Numbered from the stretch's first letter, positions 15,983 to 50,189 are shown. The stretch is 64,000 nt of DNA from Alphaproteobacteria bacterium (GCA_016869145.1 VGEU01000001.1:127237-191236); one strand, 5' to 3'. Numbers and translations are program-made. Notes: a model not told the origin generated them from the letters alone.

Positions 15983-18455
15983 ATGACCGCTGTGATCCCC
16001 GTGGTCCTCGCGATCGCGGCCCTGCTGGTGCTGGCGAGCGTGCTTCTGCCGCTTGCCGATCGGCTCAACCTGCCGCATGTCGTGCTCATCGCAGGCCTCG
16101 GCATGGTCATCGGCCTCGGCTCGCTCTGGATCGAGAGCGACGCGCTCGAGGGGATCGTGGGCGATGCCGTTCGCGGCCTCAACAGCCTGCGGCTTCCATC
16201 CGAGGCGTTCCTGTTCGTCTTCCTGCCGATCCTCCTGTTCACGGTCGGGCTGACGAGCGAGGTCCGCCGCCTGTTCGATGACATCGCGGCCGTCCTTCTC
16301 CTCGCGGTCGTCGCCGTCGTCGTCTGCACCGTCTTCGTCGGCGTGTCGCTGTCGCTGGTCGGATAGGCCGGGCTGATCGTCTGTCTCCTCGTCGGATCGA
16401 TCATCGCGACGACCGATCCCGCGGCCGTGGTTGCGACCTTCCGCGATCTCGGCGCGCCGCGGCGGCTGTCGATCCTGGTCGAGGGCGAGAGCCTCTTCAA
16501 CGACGCCGCGGCGATCGCGCTCTTCGCCCTCCTCCTCGACGTCCTGATGGGATCGCGCGAGCCGAGCGTGATCGACGGAACGCTCGCCTTTCTCAAGGGC
16601 TTCCTCGGGGGCATCGCGGTCGGTTACGTAATGGGCCGACTGGTCTCGGCGCTTCTGCCGTCGCTTCGCGAGGCGCTGGTCGCGGAGATCACCGTCTCGG
16701 TCGCGCTCGCCTATTTCTCGTTCATCGTCGGCGAGCATTATCTCCACGTCTCGGGCATCGTCGCCGTCGTCACCGCGGCGCTCACCTTCGCCGTCTACGC
16801 GCCGACGCGGATGACACCCGACAACTGGAACACGCTGGTCGAGACCTGGAAGCAGCTTGAGTTCTGGGCCAACTCACTCATCTTCGTGCTCGCCGCCGTG
16901 CTCGCGGCGCGCGTCCTGAGCGATGTCACGCTCGCCGATCTCGGGCTCCTTGGCATCCTGATCGTCGCCGCCTATGCCGCGCGCGCCTTCACGCTCTACG
17001 TGCTTCTGCCGGGCCTCACGGCGATCCGGGTCACCTAGCCGGTCGCCGGCGCCCATCGCGCAGTGATCCTCTGGGGCGGGCTCCGCGGCGCGGTCACCAT
17101 GGTGCTCGCGCTCGCGGCGGCCGATCACCCAGGCCTCAGCGACGCTCAGCAGCATTTCGTCGGCGTGCTGGCGCTCGGCTTCGTCATCTTCACCCTCTTC
17201 GTCGGCGCCCCGACGCTCCGCCCCCTCCTCCATCTCCTTGGGCTGCACAAGCTGAGCGCGACCGAGGCCGCGCTCCGCGACCGCGTGATGGCGCTGTCGC
17301 GGGGCGAGATCCGCGACCAGCTCGATGTCGTCGCGCGCGACTACGGCCTCGCCCCGCGTCCCGTCGATCAAGCGACCCAGCCGTCGGCGCGCGACAGCGA
17401 GGTCGTGCCCCTCATTCCGGGCGACCGCATCGCGGTCGGCCTTCTCACCCTCGCCACCCGCGAGCGCGACCTCTACTATCTCCACTTCCGCGACCGGACG
17501 ATCTCGCGCCACATGGCGCGCGTTGTGATGTCGGCGTCCGACCATCTGTTCGATCTCGTGAAGACGGGCGGGGTCAAGGGCTATCACCGAGCGGGCAGCG
17601 AGATGGTGCGGCTGTCGCAGCGGCTACGCCTCGGGCTCTGGATTCACCGGCGCACCGGCTGGAGCGATTCGCTGTCAGCGGCGCTCGCCGACCGCTTCGA
17701 GTCGCTCCTCGTCATGCAGCTCGTGCTGCGCGGCCTCGTCGCGTTCAACAACGATTCGATCGCCGCCCTTGTCGGTGCCGAGACCTGCGAGACGCTCCAG
17801 ACGCTCCTCGCGAACGCGCCGAATCCGTCGATACCGCGCTCGCCGCGATCGAGCTCCAGTATCCGCGCTATACGAGCGCGCTCCGCGAGCATCATCTGAA
17901 GCGGGCGGAGATCCGCTTCCAGAGCGATTCCTACCGCCGCAAGCTCGAGGACACGCTGATCAGCCGCGAGGTCTATGGCGATCTGCAGCGAGCGCTCCGC
18001 AAGCGCCACCAGGAGATCGAACGGCGGCCGCCGCTCGATCTCGGGCTCAAGCTGGCCGAGATGGTGGGGCGCGTCCCGAGTTCGCCAATCTCGACGCCGA
18101 TCGCCTCGCGCACGTCGTCCGCCGGCTTCGGCCCCGGCTCGCCGTGCCGGGTGAACGGATCATCGCCAAGGGCGAGCGCGGCGACGAGATGTACTTCATC
18201 GCCTCGGGCGAGGTCGATGTCATCACGCCGTCGGGCCCCATTGCGCTGACGACGGGCGCCTTCTTCGGCGAGATGGCGCTGCTCACGCGCCAGCCGCGCA
18301 ACGCCGACGTCGTCGCATCCGGCTATGTTCAGCTTCTCGTCCTCGAGGGCGGCGATTTCCGGACCCTGATGCGGAGCGACGAGACAATCCGCGCCGAGAT
18401 CGAACGGGTCGTCGCGGAGCGGCGCGGCGGCACGGAGCAGCGCCTCGCCGAGTAG
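15983..18455 (+). pseudogene. CPA1 Na+/H+ antiporter with C-terminal cyclic-nucleotide-binding domain, disrupted
   Basis: Three consecutive same-frame ORFs (15905-16366, 16427-17038, 17063-17899) are separated only by TAG codons at 16364-16366 and 17036-17038. Translation is continuous across both: ...SLVG*AGLIVCLLVGSIIATTDPAAV... and ...AIRVT*PVAGAHRAVILWGGLRGAV.... Two further frame changes occur near 17825 and near 18070 before the cNMP-binding domain (GERIIAKGERGDEMYFIASGEVDV...FFGEMALL). Confidence 0.75.
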
Positions 18456-27656: not shown

Positions 27657-28661
27657 TCACTGGGCGATGAAGCCCGCGCTCTGCATCAGCTCGCGGTGGC
27701 GCTTCTCCTCGTTCTCGACCCATTTCGCGTAGTCGGGACCGGTCATGAAGGTCGTGTTGAACGCGCCTTCCTGCATGAGCTGCCGCCATTCCGGCGTCTC
27801 GCGCACCTTCTGGAACAGCGACACGTAGTAGGCGACCTGCGCCGGCGTCGCACCGGGCGCCATGAACACGCCGCGCAGCATCAGATACTCGACGTTGATA
27901 CCGGATTCGCGGCAGGTCGGGATGTCGCTCCAGGCCTTGTCGCCCGCGACCTTCTCGGTGACGGAGAGCCGCTTGGAATCGAAGACGCAGAGCGGTCGAA
28001 GCTAGCCCGCGCGCCAATGCGCCACCGCCTCGATCGGGTTGTTGACGGTCGAATTGACGTGCTTGCCGACGAGCTGGACCGCGACGGCGCCGCCGCCCGC
28101 GAACGGCACATAGGCGAACTTCTTGCCGATGATCCGTTCGAGCGCAACGGTGATGATCTGGTCTTCCTGCTTGGAACCGGTGCCCGCCATCTTGAAGGTG
28201 TTGTCCGGCGCGGCCCTCACCGCCTCGATATATTGCTGCGCGGTCTGATAGGGCGATTCGGCGTTGACCCACAGGATGAACTCGTCGAGCGCCAGCATTG
28301 CGACCGGGGTCAGTTCCTTCCAGTTGAAGGGGATCCCGGTGCCTAGCGGTGTCGTGAACAGGTTCGAGAGCGTGATGATCAGCTTGTGCGGATTGCGCGC
28401 CGAGGCCTTGACGTCGAGGAAGCCCTCGCCGCCGGCGCCGCCGGCCTTGTTCACCACCACCATCGACTGCTTCATCAGGTTGTGCTTGCCGATGATGCCC
28501 TGCACGACCCGGGCCATCTGGTCGGCACCGCCGCCGGTGCCGGCGGGCACGATGAACTCGACATTACGGGTCGGCTCCCACGCCTGCGCCGCGGCGGGCG
28601 CGATGGAGGCGTAGGCCGCGATCGACAGGACGGCGGCGAACGTACGAAGGGTCATGAACAT
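27657..28661 (-). pseudogene. tctC: tripartite tricarboxylate transporter substrate-binding protein TctC, interrupted by an in-frame TAG
   Basis: Signal peptide MFMTLRTFAAVLSIAAYASIAPAAAQA; TctC-family sequence continues in frame across the TAG at 28002-28004: ...NPIEAVAHWRAG*LRPLCVFDSKRLSVTEKVAGDKAWSDIPTCRESGINVEYLMLRGVFMAPGATPAQV.... The TAG sits where TctC homologues usually have Lys (AAG). Confidence 0.75.
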
Positions 28662-32336: not shown

Positions 32337-32462
32337 CTATCACACCGCGTCGGCGATGTAAGCGCCGAGCGAATTGGTCGCGATCCGGGCGAACCATTTT
32401 CTTGCGAGGGGTCCCTCGTTCGTGCAAGATCCCGCCGAGCCACGGTGGCAGAACGATCACCC

Positions 32463-33257
32463 ATGACCAAATTGCTCAGCGCACAGGAAGTCGAGCGGTT
32501 CAGGCGGGACGGATACCTGTTCCCTTACCGCGCGATCAGCGAGGCGAAGGCCGCCGACAGCCTGCGCCAGCTCGCGGACTACGAGGCCACGCTCGGCCAC
32601 GAAGCGCAGAACCATGTTCGGTTCAAGTTTCACCTCGTCTTCAACTGGGCGCTCGAGATCGCGCGCAACGAGACCATTCTCGATGCCGTCGAGGATCTGA
32701 TCGGACCCGACATCCTCTTGTTCGCCGGCTCGATCTGGACCAAGAACGCGCACGACCCGCGCTTTGTCGCCTGGCATCAGGACTCCGCCTATTTCGGGCT
32801 CGACCCGCATGATGAAGTGACCGCCTGGGTGGCGATCAGCGACAGCCGGAGCGATAACGGCTGCCTGCGATATCTGCCCCAGTCGCATCACGGCGCCGAC
32901 ATGACCCACATCGAGAAAAAGGGCGACAACAATCTCCTGGTGTTCGGGCAGCGGATCGAAGGCATCGCGGACGAGCGCGGCATCGATGCGGAGCTCGCGC
33001 CGGGTGAATTCACGCTCCATCACGAGCGTACCGCCCATAGCTCGCGCCCCAATGTCTCGGACCGGCGGCGGGTCGGGCTGTCGCTGTTCTATATTCCGGC
33101 GCATGTGCGGTCGACCGGCGCGCGACGGTCTGCCCTTCTCGTTCGCGGCAAGGACAAATACGGCCATTGGGATCCGGATCCCCTGCCGCGCTACGACCTC
33201 GATCCGATCACGTTCGAGCACATGAAAAAGTGCCTGGGAGGCTATCTGCACGGCTGA
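32463..33257 (+). CDS. phytanoyl-CoA dioxygenase (PhyH) family protein
   Basis: PhyH-like sequence (WHQDSAYF, HHERTAHSS). Confidence 0.8.
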   Translation: MTKLLSAQEVERFRRDGYLFPYRAISEAKAADSLRQLADYEATLGHEAQNHVRFKFHLVFNWALEIARNETILDAVEDLIGPDILLFAGSIWTKNAHDPRFVAWHQDSAYFGLDPHDEVTAWVAISDSRSDNGCLRYLPQSHHGADMTHIEKKGDNNLLVFGQRIEGIADERGIDAELAPGEFTLHHERTAHSSRPNVSDRRRVGLSLFYIPAHVRSTGARRSALLVRGKDKYGHWDPDPLPRYDLDPITFEHMKKCLGGYLHG

Positions 33258-40164: not shown

Positions 40165-40929
40165 GTGAAACGCGAGCACGTCTACGCGACCCTCGTCTGC
40201 GTCGCGTTCTTCGTGGTCTGGGAGATCGGCTGCCGCGTTCTCGCCATCCCGAGCTTCATCCTGCCCGCGCCGAGCCGGGCGATCGCCGCCTTGTGGCATT
40301 GGCACGAGGCGATCTTTGAGCACTCGTTCCAGACCTTCTACACGACGGTTGCCGGGTTCCTGATCGCGATGGTGACGGGGCTCGCGTTCGGCGTCGCGCT
40401 CGGCGCGACGGCGACCGTCTATCGGAGCCTCTATCCCCTACTCGTCGGGTTCAACACGGTGCCCAAGGTGGCGCTGGTGCCGCTTCTCGTGATGTGGTTC
40501 GGGATCGGCACCGTGCCCGCGATCATCACCGCGTTCCTGATCGCGTTCTTCCCGATCATGGTCAATGTCGCGACCGGGATCGCGACCGTCGAGCCCGAGC
40601 TCGCCGACGTTCTGCGCGCGCTCGGCGCACGAAAGCGCGAGATCCTGTGGAAGGTTGGCGTGCCGCGCTCGATGCCCTATTTCTTCGCTTCGCTCAAGAT
40701 CTCGATCACCTTCGCCTTCGTCGGCTCGATCGTCTCCGAGAACGTCGCGGCGAACTCAGGCATCGGGCATCTGATGACCGTCGCCTCGGCCCGGTTCGAG
40801 GTCGACCTCGCCTTCGCCGCCCTTCTCGTCATCGCGGCGATGGGCATCTTCATGTATGGCATCACCGCGATCTTCGAGCGCCGGATGACCGGCTGGTCGA
40901 CGCGCGGCATGGACATGGCGGCCGGCTAG
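40165..40929 (+). CDS. ABC transporter permease (NitT/TauT family)
   Basis: Six TM helices and a permease EAA-like loop; GTG start; no ATPase gene adjacent. Confidence 0.8.
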   Translation: MKREHVYATLVCVAFFVVWEIGCRVLAIPSFILPAPSRAIAALWHWHEAIFEHSFQTFYTTVAGFLIAMVTGLAFGVALGATATVYRSLYPLLVGFNTVPKVALVPLLVMWFGIGTVPAIITAFLIAFFPIMVNVATGIATVEPELADVLRALGARKREILWKVGVPRSMPYFFASLKISITFAFVGSIVSENVAANSGIGHLMTVASARFEVDLAFAALLVIAAMGIFMYGITAIFERRMTGWSTRGMDMAAG

Positions 40930-41015
40930 ACCAAGGCGGCGCGAGCCGGCCGCGCTCGCTTGGCTCCGTGGCCGGGCCGTGCGTCCGACGCGTTCTTTTG
41001 GGATGGGCCTGCACC

Positions 41016-41063
41016 GGGCCTTTGGCACGGGCTTGCGCCGGGCCTTTGGCATGGGCTTGCGCC
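41016..41063. repeat. 24-bp tandem duplication gggcctttggca(c/t)gggcttgcgcc x2 upstream of the mltF-like gene
   Basis: Direct read of the sequence; there is a partial third copy just upstream. Confidence 0.6.
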
Positions 41064-41091
41064 GGCACCCCGGTTGACCCATGGTTCGTTG

Positions 41092-42819
41092 ATGTTCCCA
41101 CGACCGCTCCGCTGCCGGCTCGCCGGCCTCCTCGTCCTCTTCGCCATCGCCGCAACCGCCACCGCCGCGCCGGTCCGGGCCCAGGGTGCCGCAGAGGTGC
41201 CGGACGAGGCGGAGCTTCAGGGCGAGGAGCTGATCGCGGCCGCCGCGGAGAGCCTCGACGGCGATCTCCCGGCGATCCGGGCGCGCAACCGCATCCGCTT
41301 CCTCGTCTCCTACACCAAGACGAATTTCGTCTTCGCCGACGGCGCGCTCCGCGGCTTCGAGCACGATCTCGCGAAGCAATACGTCGAATGGCTCGACCGG
41401 TCGCGCCCGCGCGGCACGCCGCCCTTGTCGGTCGTGTTCATCCCGGTCGCCTTCGACGAGCTGATCCCCGCGCTCCGCGCCGGCCGCGGCGACATCATCG
41501 CCGCCAACATGACGGCCACGCCCGCCCGCGCCGCCCTGGTTGGGTTTGCCGCCCCCTATATCGACAATGTGCGCGAGGTCGTGGTGACGACCCGCGACCA
41601 TCCGCCGATCACGAGCCTCGATGCGCTCGCCGACGAGCCGATCGTGGTGCTGCGCGGCTCGAGCTTCGCCGAGCAACTGCGGGCCATCAACGACGATCGC
41701 CGCCGCGCCGGCAAGAAGCCGATCGAGGTCGTCGAGGCGGAGCCAAGCCTGCAGACCGAGGATCTCCTCGAGCTGGTGAGCGCGGGCGTCATCCGCCGCA
41801 CCGTCGCCGACGACCACATCGCCGACGTGTGGGCGGAAGTGCTTCCCAATCTCGCGATCCAGAACGACGTCGCGATCGCCGAGGGCCGGCGCATCGCCTG
41901 GGCGGTGCGGAGCGAGAACACCGCACTCCGCGAGTCGATCAGCGCCTTCGTTGCGACCACCGAGGGGCGCCGGTCGACGGATCGGCGGCGGCTGTTCGCG
42001 AGCTACTATGCCAACACGCGCTGGGTGAAGAACCCGTTCGAGGCGGAGGTCTCGGGCCGCACGCTCGGGCTGATCCGGCATTTCCGCGAGGTCGCGGACC
42101 GGCATCGCTGGGACTGGCTTCTCCTGTTGGCGCAAGGGTTCCAGGAATCCGGGCTCGATCCGGCGGCGCGGAGCCCGGCCGGCGCGGTCGGGATCATGCA
42201 GCTCATGCCGGCGACAGGCGCCGAGCTCGGCGTGCGCAACCTCCTCGATCCGGCCGAGAACATCAGTGGCGGCGGGCGCTATCTCGACCGGCTGCGCAGC
42301 ACCTATTTCAACGACCCCGCGATCGGCGAGACCGATCGGCTCCTGTTCGCGCTCGCGGCCTATAACGCGGGACCGGGCCGGGTCGCCTAGCTTCGCGCGC
42401 TCGCGCAGGCGCGCGGCAACGATCCGAACAAATGGTTCCGTCAGGTCGAGCTCGTCGCGCTCGGTAGCGGGCTCTCCGAGACGGTCCGCTATGTCGGCAA
42501 CATCAACCAGTATTATGTCGCCTACCGGCTCGCCGAGGAGGCGCTCATTCTGCGCCGGCAGCGCGAGGACGCGCTCCTCGGCGCCGGCACCCGGCCCGGC
42601 AGCCCGCGCGCGATCGACGGGGATTCCATTCTTCTGCCGTCGGGCGAGATCGTCCGACTCGTCGACATCGACACGCCCGAGCTCGACTGCCGCTGCCTCA
42701 AGGAATGCGATCTCGCCCGCCGCGCCCACGCCTTCACCCAGGCGCGGGTCGATCTCGGCCTCGGCGCTGTGACGCCGGTCGGCAAGGACCGTTACGGCCG
42801 TTCGCTCGTCCGTATCTAG
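41092..42819 (+). pseudogene. MltF-like lytic transglycosylase (SBP_bac_3 + SLT domains) fused to a C-terminal SNase/thermonuclease-like domain, with an in-frame TAG at 42388-42390
   Basis: Signal peptide MFPRPLRCRLAGLLVLFAIAATATA; SLT catalytic region (LLLAQGFQESGLDP...AAYNAGPGRVA). Translation continues in frame across the TAG into the conserved distal SLT region (*LRALAQARGNDPNKWFRQVELVALG...YVGNINQYYVAYRL). It then runs with no stop and no plausible internal start into an SNase domain (IDGDSILLPSGEIVRLVDIDTPE...GKDRYGRSLVRI), ending at TAG 42817-42819. Downstream of that TAG the frame still looks SNase-like (AGGEDLARSLVRA) until TAA at 42931-42933. Confidence 0.7.
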
Positions 42820-42859
42820 GCCGGCGGCGAAGACCTCGCGCGGAGTCTCGTGCGCGCCC

Positions 42860-42901
42860 GGCATCCCTCTCCGCGTCGCCGGCGGCGCGGAGAGGGATGC
42901 C
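42860..42901. repeat. perfect 16-bp inverted repeat ggcatccctctccgcg / cgcggagagggatgcc with a 10-nt loop
   Basis: Direct read; a strong GC hairpin followed by a 130-bp AT-rich stretch. Confidence 0.7.
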
Positions 42902-42904
42902 CCG

Positions 42905-43047
42905 ATCGGCGTGTTCACCAATATTGTTAAGTGAACGGAAATATTTATTGACCTGATCCGAAGAAATATCGTTAACGACACCTTACCGAACCGATCGAAT
43001 TCTATTAAATTGCCGCGCATTGACATCGTTCGTCAGGAGTGCGTGTC
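42905..43047 (+). promoter_or_regulatory. AT-rich island with several sigma70-like hexamers upstream of the flp pilin gene
   Basis: ttgacc (42948-42953) and ttgaca (about 43020); TTAA/GTTAAC half-sites; GC content is far below the 70% background. Confidence 0.35.
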
Positions 43048-43236
43048 ATGCGTGGTTTCTTCGTCGAGCTTCTCGCCGACGAAACGGGCGCCTCGGCCGT
43101 CGAGTACGGGCTGATCGCCGCCCTCGTCTCGGTCGCCGCCGCGGCGTCGTTCGAGAGCATCGGGACCTCGCTCTCGGCGATGTTCGGTTCGGTGTCGTCG
43201 GCGATCCAGGACGCCTACGCCGTTCTGTCGACCTGA
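43048..43236 (+). CDS. flp: Flp family type IVb pilin
   Basis: MRGFFVELLADETGASAVEYGLIAALVSVAA is the classic Flp prepilin leader plus hydrophobic core; 62 aa. Confidence 0.8.
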   Translation: MRGFFVELLADETGASAVEYGLIAALVSVAAAASFESIGTSLSAMFGSVSSAIQDAYAVLST

Positions 43237-44091: not shown

Positions 44092-44166
44092 TGGTGAGCC
44101 CGGTGGGGATCGAACCCACGACCACCTGATTAAAAGTCAGATGCTCTACCGCTGAGCTACGGGCTC
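44092..44166 (-). tRNA. tRNA-Lys (anticodon UUU), CCA encoded
   Basis: Cloverleaf reads GAGCCCG-TA-GCTC-AGCGGTA-GAGC-A-TCTGA-CTTTTAA-TCAGG-TGGTC-GTGGG-TTCGATC-CCCAC-CGGGCTC-A-CCA. Acceptor stem is 7/7 paired; the anticodon loop CUUUUAA gives UUU. Confidence 0.9.
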
Positions 44167-48230: not shown

Positions 48231-50189
48231 CTAGTGCGCACGTGCCGCGGCCGGCGCGGCTGCGTTCGAGCGCGCCCGGAGCAGGAAGAACAGCCCCAGC
48301 GCCATGGCCAGTGCCGGCCACTGGAACTCCGGCCGCGGCACGATCAGCGCGATCACCGCGGCAAAGAACAACAACCGCCACAGAATGTTGAGCCTGAACT
48401 TGATGACATAGCCGTGGAGCATGATCGAGGCGACGAACACGCAGCTCGTGCCGAGGATCGCGTCGCCGACGATGTCGACGAGATCGCCCTGGAGCAGGAT
48501 GCCCGGATTGAACATGAAGAAGAACGGCAGCAGGAACCCGCCCACGGCGAGCATACACGCATAGGGTGCGATCTTCATCGGCGAGGCGCCGGCGATGGCG
48601 CCCGCGGCAAAGGACGCGACCGCGACCGGTGGCGTGATCGCCGACATGCACGAGAAAAACAGGATGAACATGTGGGTTTCCATCAGCGGCAGCCCGAACC
48701 GCGTGACCATGACCGGCGCGAGGAGCGCGATGCCCATGATGTAGACGCCCGTGGTCGGCATGCCCATCCCGAGAAGGATCAGGACGATGGCGGTGAGGAT
48801 CAGCGACGGGATCAGGAGCCCGCCCGAGAGCTGGAACAGGAGGAGCGTGAACTTGCCGGCGAGCCCGGTGAGCTCGATGCAGCCGATGAAGAAGCCGGCC
48901 GCCGCGACCGCACCGATCAACCCCGCCATCGACAGACAGGTCTCGACGCACGCCTTGACAAAGCGCTGCGGGCCGATCGCGGTCTCCTTCTTGACCCAGC
49001 TCCCGAGGATCACCGCGAGCGTCGAGCCGGCACCGACATAGGCGGCCGAATAACCCTGCACCAGGAGGACGATCAGCACGATCAGCGAGAACAGGCTATG
49101 CCAGTTGTTCTTGAGCGCGATCTTGAGCCCGACGATCTGATCTTCCGGCACACGTCCGAGGTCGAGCCGGCGCGATTCGAAATGCACGAGCGTGAATACG
49201 CCGAAATAGTAGGCAAGCGCCGGCAGCACCGCGAAGGCCGCGATGTGGGCGTAGGGGATGCCGGTGTAGTCGGCCATGATGAAGGCGACAGCACCCATGA
49301 CCGGCGGCAGGATCGAGCCACCCGTCGAGGCCGCGGCCTCGATCGCGCCGGCACGCTCGGACGAGATGCCGATCTTCTTCATGATCGGGATCGAGATCGG
49401 CCCGGTGGTCGCGACGTCGGCGACCGGGCTTCCCGAGATCGAGCCGTAGAGCCCGCTCGACATCACGCAGGCCTTCGCGGGCCCGCCGCTCATCCGTCCC
49501 GTCACCGCCGCGGCGACGTCGAAGAACAGCTGGCCACCGCCGGCGACGACGAAGAAGTTGCCGAACAGCACGAACAGGAACGCATAGGAGGCCGTGACAT
49601 AGAGCGGCGAGCCGAAGATCCCGTCCTGGGTCACCGTCTGCATCTCGATGAAATAGAGGAGCTCGACCCCCGAGTGCCGGAAGCTGCCACCGAGATATTC
49701 GCCGAACGCGACATAGAGCAGCATCAGGACGACGATGATCGAGAGTCCCGGCCCGACCGACCGCCGGCAGAGCTCGATCACCAGCGCACTCAGGATCAGC
49801 CCGAACACCAGATGGTGCCAGCTCACCTGGCTGAACGCGCTCATCCACTCCTTCCACAGCGGCTCGTAGATGATGGAGTAGAGCGGTGTCGCGACTGCCA
49901 GCGCCGCGAACAGCCAGTCGAGCCAGGTGAGCCGCTTCACGTCCTTGAAGCAGGACGTCGTCAGGAAGCAGATCGGGAACAGGAACAGGAGAAACCAGGC
50001 GATCTGGTGCCGCTCGTGCACCTTGCCCCAGAGAGCGAGGTAGATGACGGCGAAGACGCCGAGAACCGACAGGACGGCAACGATGAGATGGACGATCCCC
50101 TTCGGTGTCAGGCGCTCGGTTTCCGCCCAGAAGCGGAGGAACCATCGGTCGGGTGACAGGCGCTCGGGCTGATTGTCGGTTGTTGCCAC
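48231..50189 (-). CDS. TRAP transporter fused permease subunit (TAXI-associated 4TM/12TM fusion)
   Basis: 652 aa multi-TM protein with DctQ-like and DctM-like parts in one polypeptide; downstream of a TAXI solute receptor gene. Confidence 0.85.
   Translation of the reverse strand: MATTDNQPERLSPDRWFLRFWAETERLTPKGIVHLIVAVLSVLGVFAVIYLALWGKVHERHQIAWFLLFLFPICFLTTSCFKDVKRLTWLDWLFAALAVATPLYSIIYEPLWKEWMSAFSQVSWHHLVFGLILSALVIELCRRSVGPGLSIIVVLMLLYVAFGEYLGGSFRHSGVELLYFIEMQTVTQDGIFGSPLYVTASYAFLFVLFGNFFVVAGGGQLFFDVAAAVTGRMSGGPAKACVMSSGLYGSISGSPVADVATTGPISIPIMKKIGISSERAGAIEAAASTGGSILPPVMGAVAFIMADYTGIPYAHIAAFAVLPALAYYFGVFTLVHFESRRLDLGRVPEDQIVGLKIALKNNWHSLFSLIVLIVLLVQGYSAAYVGAGSTLAVILGSWVKKETAIGPQRFVKACVETCLSMAGLIGAVAAAGFFIGCIELTGLAGKFTLLLFQLSGGLLIPSLILTAIVLILLGMGMPTTGVYIMGIALLAPVMVTRFGLPLMETHMFILFFSCMSAITPPVAVASFAAGAIAGASPMKIAPYACMLAVGGFLLPFFFMFNPGILLQGDLVDIVGDAILGTSCVFVASIMLHGYVIKFRLNILWRLLFFAAVIALIVPRPEFQWPALAMALGLFFLLRARSNAAAPAAARAH

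Follow-up and report, generated by a model that had tools for sequence, protein, structure and literature searches.

A joined MltF-thermonuclease reading frame in an alphaproteobacterial genome is probably a decaying pseudogene

An MltF-like lytic transglycosylase gene and the remains of a thermonuclease gene share one reading frame in the DNA analyzed here, a 64-kb stretch of an alphaproteobacterial genome that is referred to as the window. This frame is probably a decaying, lineage-specific pseudogene and not the gene of a working bifunctional enzyme. It is broken by two amber codons. Both are real, and other genes of this genome also use TAG as their stop, so these stops are neither errors nor recoded sense codons.

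Results

The MltF-nuclease frame is interrupted twice

Read-through translation of positions 41092-42933 yielded a signal peptide, an SBP_bac_3 domain, an SLT domain and a staphylococcal-nuclease-like segment, all in one frame. The preliminary description had proposed this series of elements, broken by a TAG inside SLT and with nuclease-like sequence continuing to the TAA at 42931; translation confirmed the layout, and Pfam detected all three domains. The frame consists of 432 codons followed by a first TAG (42388..42390), 142 codons followed by a second TAG (42817..42819) and 37 codons followed by TAA (42931..42933). All coding features of the locus lie on the plus strand.

Translation, Pfam and NCBIfam identified the first 432 codons and their TAG as an MltF-like ORF (41092..42390). 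A signal peptide with a cleavage-like VRA/QG site (41092-41181) precedes SBP_bac_3 (about 41308-41958) and most of the SLT domain (from about 42085), which carries its catalytic glutamate within QESGLD (42142-42159) and an AYNAG motif (42358-42372). The first TAG is a nonsense codon within the conserved catalytic module of MltF, and the last 65 codons of this module and the tail (DPNKWF...VRYVGNINQYYVAY...) are located downstream of it (42391..42585). Nine codons encoding the linker GTRPGSPRA (42586..42612) connect the MltF part to the nuclease-like segment (IDGDS...VRLVDIDTPE...CRC..EC...DRYGRSL...LVRA; 42613..42861), within which the second TAG resides. The peptide spanning the linker reads GAGTRPGSPRAIDGDS / LLGAGTRPGSPRAIDGDSILL.

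The product of the 432 codons is identical to P0001, a 432-aa protein annotated in a metagenome-assembled genome (MAG). Third-position G+C content was coding-like (0.86) across the junction and the nuclease part and amounted to 0.48 after position 42861. Small frameshifts were absent over 1.77 kb of the locus, suggesting that its decay is recent.

The MltF half lacks the end of its catalytic module

Pfam matches on the read-through product were 1.4e-17 for SBP_bac_3 (residues 73-289) and 9e-21 with 74 bits for SLT (residues 332-441). The NCBIfam model for MltF (NF008112 / PRK10859) matched at 4e-59 with 200.3 bits, which is below the equivalog cut-off of 354; judged by these profiles, the predicted protein is an MltF-like family member and not an equivalog. 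Solved structures of Pseudomonas aeruginosa MltF (4OYV, 4OWD, 5AA1) aligned over residues 84-451 with 3e-36. In a word-indexed search of 5.8 billion protein clusters, the closest other MltF was 48% identical, and nothing exceeded 49% beyond the 432-aa product itself.

An ORF running uninterrupted through the conserved catalytic C-terminus, as expected of an MltF, was not found owing to the TAG at codon 433. The about 65 residues past this codon are conserved across the MltF family and present in the solved structures. Among 119 MltF homologues, the column of the first TAG is occupied by R (44), K (30), Q (20) and others, indicating that one base change from CAG or AAG suffices to create the stop. 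About two thirds of these homologues end at positions equivalent to read-through residues 485-505; the rest are longer and bear other C-terminal extensions, for example LysM (PF01476). The truncated 432-aa protein keeps the catalytic glutamate and most of the Pfam SLT model, and residual activity is possible.

The nuclease half is an incomplete domain without a start

The SNase model (PF00565) matched the read-through product with 5.4e-6 and 27.3 bits, and the segment alone with 31.1 bits, both above the gathering score of 21 that defines membership of the family. The match spans model positions 2-70 of 107 only. A profile of the nuclease subfamily matched Staphylococcus aureus nuclease at 6e-16, and the segment corresponds to residues about 18-106 of that enzyme. 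Alignment showed that the counterparts of D21, R35, D40, T41, E43, Y85 and R87 are all retained (in IDGDS, VRLVDIDTPE and DRYGR). The domain is incomplete, as the GLGRPY strand with the counterpart of Y113/Y115 and the near-invariant C-terminal tryptophan are missing.

The second TAG falls 68 codons into the nuclease domain. It had been said to coincide with a conserved tyrosine of SNase; it does align with Tyr93 of S. aureus nuclease, but the column is variable in the subfamily of the segment (R/E/H/Y/L/T/S). No usable ATG, GTG or TTG start for a nuclease ORF exists in frame. The only such codon after 42390 is a GTG located 16 codons before the second TAG, and neither a signal peptide nor a start for the nuclease was found in the other frames. 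The claim that a separate SNase ORF would lack an ATG or GTG start was therefore correct and also holds for TTG.

These data bear on the idea that the locus contains a functional mltF gene and, apart from it, a functional nuclease gene initiated at an unusual start codon of its own. Rare in-frame start codons do exist (ATC at 42613, ATT and CTG at 42547-42550), but initiation there would produce a protein without a signal peptide although its relatives are secreted. Moreover, MltF homology reaches the junction, which leaves no intergenic spacer, and ATG, GTG and TTG are unavailable. Together with the position of the second TAG inside the domain, this makes two working genes extremely improbable.

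Homology to nucleases degenerates exactly at a near-perfect palindrome of 42 nt (42860..42901) with a 19-bp stem and a 4-nt loop (-52.5 kcal/mol, z = -6.2), which is not followed by a T-run. The palindrome is present in a single copy in the window and was thus rejected as a repeated element. The end of the frame (...RRVHQYC-TAA) resembles the R-x-x-W-C-stop terminus of many subfamily members, and the TAA at 42931 may be the ancestral stop codon of the nuclease gene.

The junction is clean and the pairing was not found elsewhere

The junction is clean, with residue 508 (IDGDS) opening the mature nuclease domain shortly after the stretch in which MltF homologues end (485-505). In nuclease relatives, the position corresponding to residue 508 is the start of the mature domain directly after the hydrophobic signal. 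The two parts are joined end to end: nothing remains of a stop codon for mltF, of a spacer or of the start and signal peptide of the nuclease.

An exhaustive HMMER search was performed with the piece between the two TAGs as query. It comprises the MltF tail, the linker and the nuclease, and a true fusion would match both halves and rank first. The search returned 577 matches among 1.84 billion representative proteins. No fusion was present among the matches listed (the best 150 of 577), each of which aligns to one part of the query alone, from position 1 to about 70 or from about 62 to 142. Two matches that apparently contained both halves were chimeric gene calls with tails resembling an amidohydrolase N-terminus. 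Furthermore, PF00565 was absent from the 120 best MltF homologues. The proposed search for the same fusion in other genomes hence gave no example in either set of matches.

With the nuclease part alone, a word-indexed search retrieved three stand-alone relatives of 140-146 aa and 46-53% identity. No mltF was located near the closest nuclease homologues in the neighborhoods looked up, and no nuclease gene was located downstream of the two closest MltF homologues looked up. A test of relatives for sense codons at 42388 and 42817 had been suggested, and no intact allele with a sense codon at either position is on record in the protein collections. Among 14 titles listed from the related literature, none names a fusion of a lytic transglycosylase with a thermonuclease. 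According to sequence comparison, both halves are members of known families, and their pairing was not found elsewhere.

The view of the preliminary description that this is a genuine fusion is supported as far as the single frame and the clean junction are concerned, but no evidence was obtained for a working or recurrent architecture. Two observations had been named that would speak against a fusion, namely an SNase part that is always a separate gene with its own start, and a failure of HMM searches to detect SNase. The first largely applies to the nearest homologues, whereas SNase was detected.

A genuine bifunctional protein, secreted by means of one Sec signal peptide until recently and damaged by the amber codons and at the C-terminus only a short time ago, would match several of these findings. 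It would explain a junction composed of a natural MltF end, a 9-residue linker and a mature nuclease start, the retention of all nuclease residues listed above, and a coding-like G+C content through linker and nuclease without frameshifts. Such a tidy in-frame join with all catalytic residues of the nuclease kept would be expected of a fusion that was once under selection and speaks against a reading as decay. On the other hand, no second protein containing both parts was seen among the matches listed from 1.84 billion proteins or among the 120 best MltF homologues. By chance alone, one in three deletions joining neighboring genes preserves the frame, and G+C-rich DNA stays open over long distances in any frame, as illustrated by the permease gene, spacer and mltF upstream. 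In addition, decay elsewhere in the window includes indels. We consider a recently working protein unlikely, although it is the main alternative.

Two other genes in the window are decaying

A gene for a Na+/H+ antiporter with a cNMP domain (15983-18443) contains TAG codons at 16364 and 17036 and frameshifts at about 17815 and about 18076. A single Pfam match to its read-through product spans model positions 3-373 of 375. In the nearest MAG the orthologue is uninterrupted; it shares 68% identity with the product and carries G and E where the TAGs stand. Homologues of the antiporter run to about 830 aa without interruption and have a cyclic-nucleotide-binding domain at the C-terminus, and alignment of a homologue to the window requires three frames. 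The antiporter gene is a multi-lesion pseudogene with two nonsense codons and two frameshifts.

A gene for a TctC-type binding protein on the minus strand (28661 to 27657) is interrupted by a TAG at 28002-28004. Its read-through product matched model positions 3-273 of 274, and solved homologues have K or Q at the position of the TAG. The lesions of both genes were reproduced in other assemblies and point to gene decay being under way in this genome. An internal-stop count in 80 related loci was noisy, being dominated by antisense frames and same-frame gene boundaries.

The internal stops are real and TAG is an ordinary stop codon

The source of the sequence is a metagenome-assembled genome, which raises the question of whether the stops or the join might be artefacts of sequencing, assembly or binning. 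The locus including both TAGs was 100% identical in three assemblies (Logan SRR7990526, JGI 3300020200 and JGI 3300020193). Assemblies from the Logan and JGI pipelines, made from different samples or runs, agreed in every base across up to 12.6 kb of sequence surrounding the locus, and they also agreed at both other TAG-bearing genes. Both JGI samples derive from a metagenome study of Lake Tanganyika. As the TAGs are identical in independent assemblies, they are not sequencing errors, and we give practically no weight to an artefact.

The coaD gene is terminated by a TAG whose position agrees with the end of its orthologues, and TAG likewise closes gyrA and the ABC permease gene just upstream of mltF. 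In crude gene calls, TAG terminates about a third of the genes in the window. A global recoding of TAG was excluded, since it ends coaD, gyrA, the permease gene and others. The in-frame TAGs were confined to dispensable genes, three in number and one of them frameshifted as well, which is not the distribution of a reassigned codon. The permease gene, the spacer and mltF share one frame, so that a permease-MltF fusion would arise from read-through of the stop at 40927. Back-up stops after TAG were not enriched.

The five in-frame stops in these three genes are all TAG, and their sequence contexts differ. A mutational hot spot generating CTAG, for example by deamination of 5-methylcytosine at CCAG, was rejected, because CTAG is depleted in the window (observed/expected 0.23) as it is in relatives. 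About 60% of nonsense hits are expected to be TAG, a rough estimate made without counting codon frequencies in the window. On the same rough estimate, the chance that a set of five stops is all TAG is about 8% under a G+C-to-A+T mutation bias. All-TAG nonsense is unsurprising because CAG, GAG and TCG are common in a genome with 68% G+C that mutates towards A+T.

A partial read-through of UAG, caused by an amber suppressor tRNA or a weak RF1, would allow full-length synthesis of MltF-nuclease, antiporter and TctC proteins. The restriction of the internal stops to TAG fits this idea. So does the fact that homologues hold K, Q, R or E at the TAG sites, residues that are encoded by NAG codons and would be inserted by near-cognate decoding. 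However, the K/Q/E pattern is equally expected from single-base mutations of NAG to TAG. The antiporter's two frameshifts are beyond the reach of any suppressor, and they and the lack of back-up-stop enrichment led us to discard amber suppression as the cause of the TAG-only pattern. Likewise, coaD, gyrA and other genes truly end in TAG, the permease would be joined to MltF, dispensable genes alone are affected and the nuclease C-terminus would be defective even so. Read-through is thus very unlikely. A single tRNA, tRNA-Lys(UUU), is encoded in the window.

The genomic setting lacks pilus, conjugation and secretion genes

By its GyrA sequence, this uncultured freshwater organism belongs among Rhodospirillales-like Alphaproteobacteria, and its GyrA is 83% identical to that of the nearest genome, a MAG. 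The order ssb - gyrA - coaD - tRNA-Lys is kept in relatives, and synteny stops directly after the tRNA. Genes at the locus itself are ordered permease - mltF - nuclease - flp - DUF1194 - tRNA-Lys, and no DUF1194, Flp, MltF or nuclease gene was found in 80 related loci. A genomic island inserted at tRNA-Lys was considered and rejected, as neither a repeated tRNA 3' end nor an integrase nor a shift in composition was found. The remaining genes of the window encode transporters, oxygenases and housekeeping functions.

Separate from the fusion, a Flp/Fap pilin gene for 62 aa is located on the plus strand at 43048..43236, based on a precomputed PF04964 match. Its product has the properties of a Flp prepilin, being short with a G/ASAVEY processing motif and a hydrophobic helix (sequence ...ETG/ASAVEYGLIAALVSVAAAA). 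The pilin had been called an orphan, which is true locally, as no tad/cpa pilus genes occur within the 64 kb. Conjugation and secretion genes are likewise absent from the window, and the surrounding genes lend no support to the proposed role of the joined protein in DNA or pilus transit.

Discussion

The data are best reconciled by decay of two neighboring genes. An amber nonsense mutation at codon 433 would have inactivated mltF. A deletion, which may have occurred within this decay or shortly before, would have taken away the mltF stop and the nuclease gene's 5' end together with the spacer between them, thereby joining both genes in frame. The nuclease remnant, devoid of start codon and signal peptide, would have gained an amber codon of its own, and its C-terminus would have degenerated at the site now occupied by a strong hairpin. 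The predicted product is at most a 432-aa MltF without the last about 65 conserved residues of the catalytic module, and the nuclease would remain untranslated.

It is rather doubtful that the fusion was a real secreted enzyme with a minimal C-terminal SNase domain until recently in the Lake Tanganyika lineage, in which case intact versions may survive in unsampled relatives. Still less likely is the additional assumption that UAG is leaky and some full-length MltF-nuclease is still made from such a recently working fusion. If an intact fused relative did exist, a wall-cutting enzyme equipped with a DNase would be a new tool for ideas on the release or uptake of DNA through the envelope.

As the sole example of an MltF-nuclease frame is broken, it should be classed with the pseudogenes rather than counted as a new architecture, and the pairing of MltF with SNase should stay out of databases as a real architecture. 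Two cautions follow for similar cases. In G+C-rich genomes, long open frames make decayed neighbor genes resemble fusions, and neither recoding nor a new architecture should be proposed for an in-frame stop until it has been compared with other genes of that genome.

Conjugative elements and Neisseria, judging by titles in the related literature, have lytic transglycosylase and thermonuclease as separate genes that co-occur in the organism or element. In contrast to conjugative elements, the locus described here is surrounded by chromosomal housekeeping genes (gyrA, coaD, ssb, uvrA), and conjugation or secretion genes were not found.

The first half shares with MltF of E. coli and P. aeruginosa the signal peptide, the N-terminal SBP_bac_3 regulatory module and the C-terminal SLT catalytic module, including the catalytic glutamate (QES) and the AYNAG motif. 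It differs from them by the TAG at codon 433 and by the nuclease-like segment after the natural C-terminus.

The closest counterparts of the second half are staphylococcal nuclease A and small secreted thermonuclease-family proteins of Alphaproteobacteria (for example P0121-P0126, one of which is labelled 'endonuclease YncB (thermonuclease family)'). The alphaproteobacterial relatives are stand-alone proteins of 100-170 aa with their own start and an N-terminal hydrophobic signal. The segment and the small secreted nucleases have the DGD, R...D-TPE and DRYGR motifs and the subfamily-specific CRC..EC cysteines in common, at 43-55% identity. The small nucleases finish with ...GLGRPY.G..R..WC, whereas the locus has 13-14 other residues there, which are encoded by the palindrome. 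Where the small nucleases have their signal stands MltF, and a TAG in the middle of the domain occurs in the locus only.

The antiporter pseudogene of the same window provides a parallel for the whole locus. Both show recognizable homology, in-frame TAGs and several lesions that are reproducible across assemblies. Unlike the antiporter gene, the MltF-nuclease locus is devoid of small frameshifts, and its extra lesion is the join to a fragment of the neighboring gene.

Structure of the nuclease segment

The mltF-nuclease frame (41092-42933, +), which joins an SNase-like segment to an MltF-like lytic transglycosylase, contains a near-perfect palindrome of 42 nt (42860-42901) with a 19-bp stem, a calculated stability of -52.5 kcal/mol and a z-score of -6.2. 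It comprises 14 codons in frame and takes the position of the nuclease's conserved GLGRPY strand. The palindrome may derive from a terminator, an inserted element or a template-switch product. No T-run follows at its 3′ side, and no second copy is present in the window.

Other interrupted genes and comparison of assemblies

At 15983-18443 (+) lies a multi-lesion pseudogene for a Na+/H+ antiporter that carries a cyclic-nucleotide-binding domain at its C-terminus. Its reading frame is interrupted by TAG at positions 16364 and 17036, and it shifts near 17815 and again near 18076. Its homologues are single polypeptides of about 830 aa. Gene calls in two Logan assemblies yield the same antiporter fragments. 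In the gene for a TctC/Bug-type substrate-binding protein (27657-28661, -), the frame is broken by a lone in-frame TAG at 28002-28004 (AHWRAG*LRPL), a site occupied by K or Q in solved homologues. The adjoining tctB and tctA genes appear intact, and the truncated TctC product of 219 aa was found in two JGI assemblies. The only difference seen between assemblies lies at 32462-32466, close to a gene start, where JGI contig Ga0194131_10014747 reads TTTGGGTCATGGTG and the reverse complement of the window TTTGGTCATGGGTG, one G being shifted.

Gene order in related genomes

Related genomes keep the gene order ssb - gyrA - coaD - tRNA-Lys(UUU), and synteny with them ends directly after the tRNA gene (44092-44166, -). 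The block made up of DUF1194, flp, mltF-nuclease and oxygenase/transporter genes is without counterpart in the 80 related loci. Neither a tRNA-end repeat nor an integrase nor a shift in composition was detected in the tRNA-Lys(UUU) region and leftwards of it. In several relatives ssb adjoins uvrA; in the window, genes for a DctM-type TRAP permease (652 aa) and an NMT1_3 binding protein lie between the two (48231-50189, -), which makes this another lineage-specific rearrangement.

Spacers flanking mltF and flp

Between the stop codon of the permease gene and the start of mltF, the spacer harbors a 24-nt unit that is repeated three times in tandem (40997-41068; consensus TTTGG.A.GGGC.TGC.CCGG...). 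The repeats share one open frame with the permease gene and mltF. About 60 bp upstream of the start of the flp pilin gene (43048-43236, +), an A+T-rich spacer displays a CtrA-box-like sequence, TTAA-N7-TTAC (42972-42986), with one mismatch to the pattern TTAA-N7-TTAA. Matches at this level occur only twice in 64 kb, compared to 0.26 expected. In Caulobacter, pilA is under CtrA control, and the candidate CtrA box upstream of flp is reminiscent of this arrangement.
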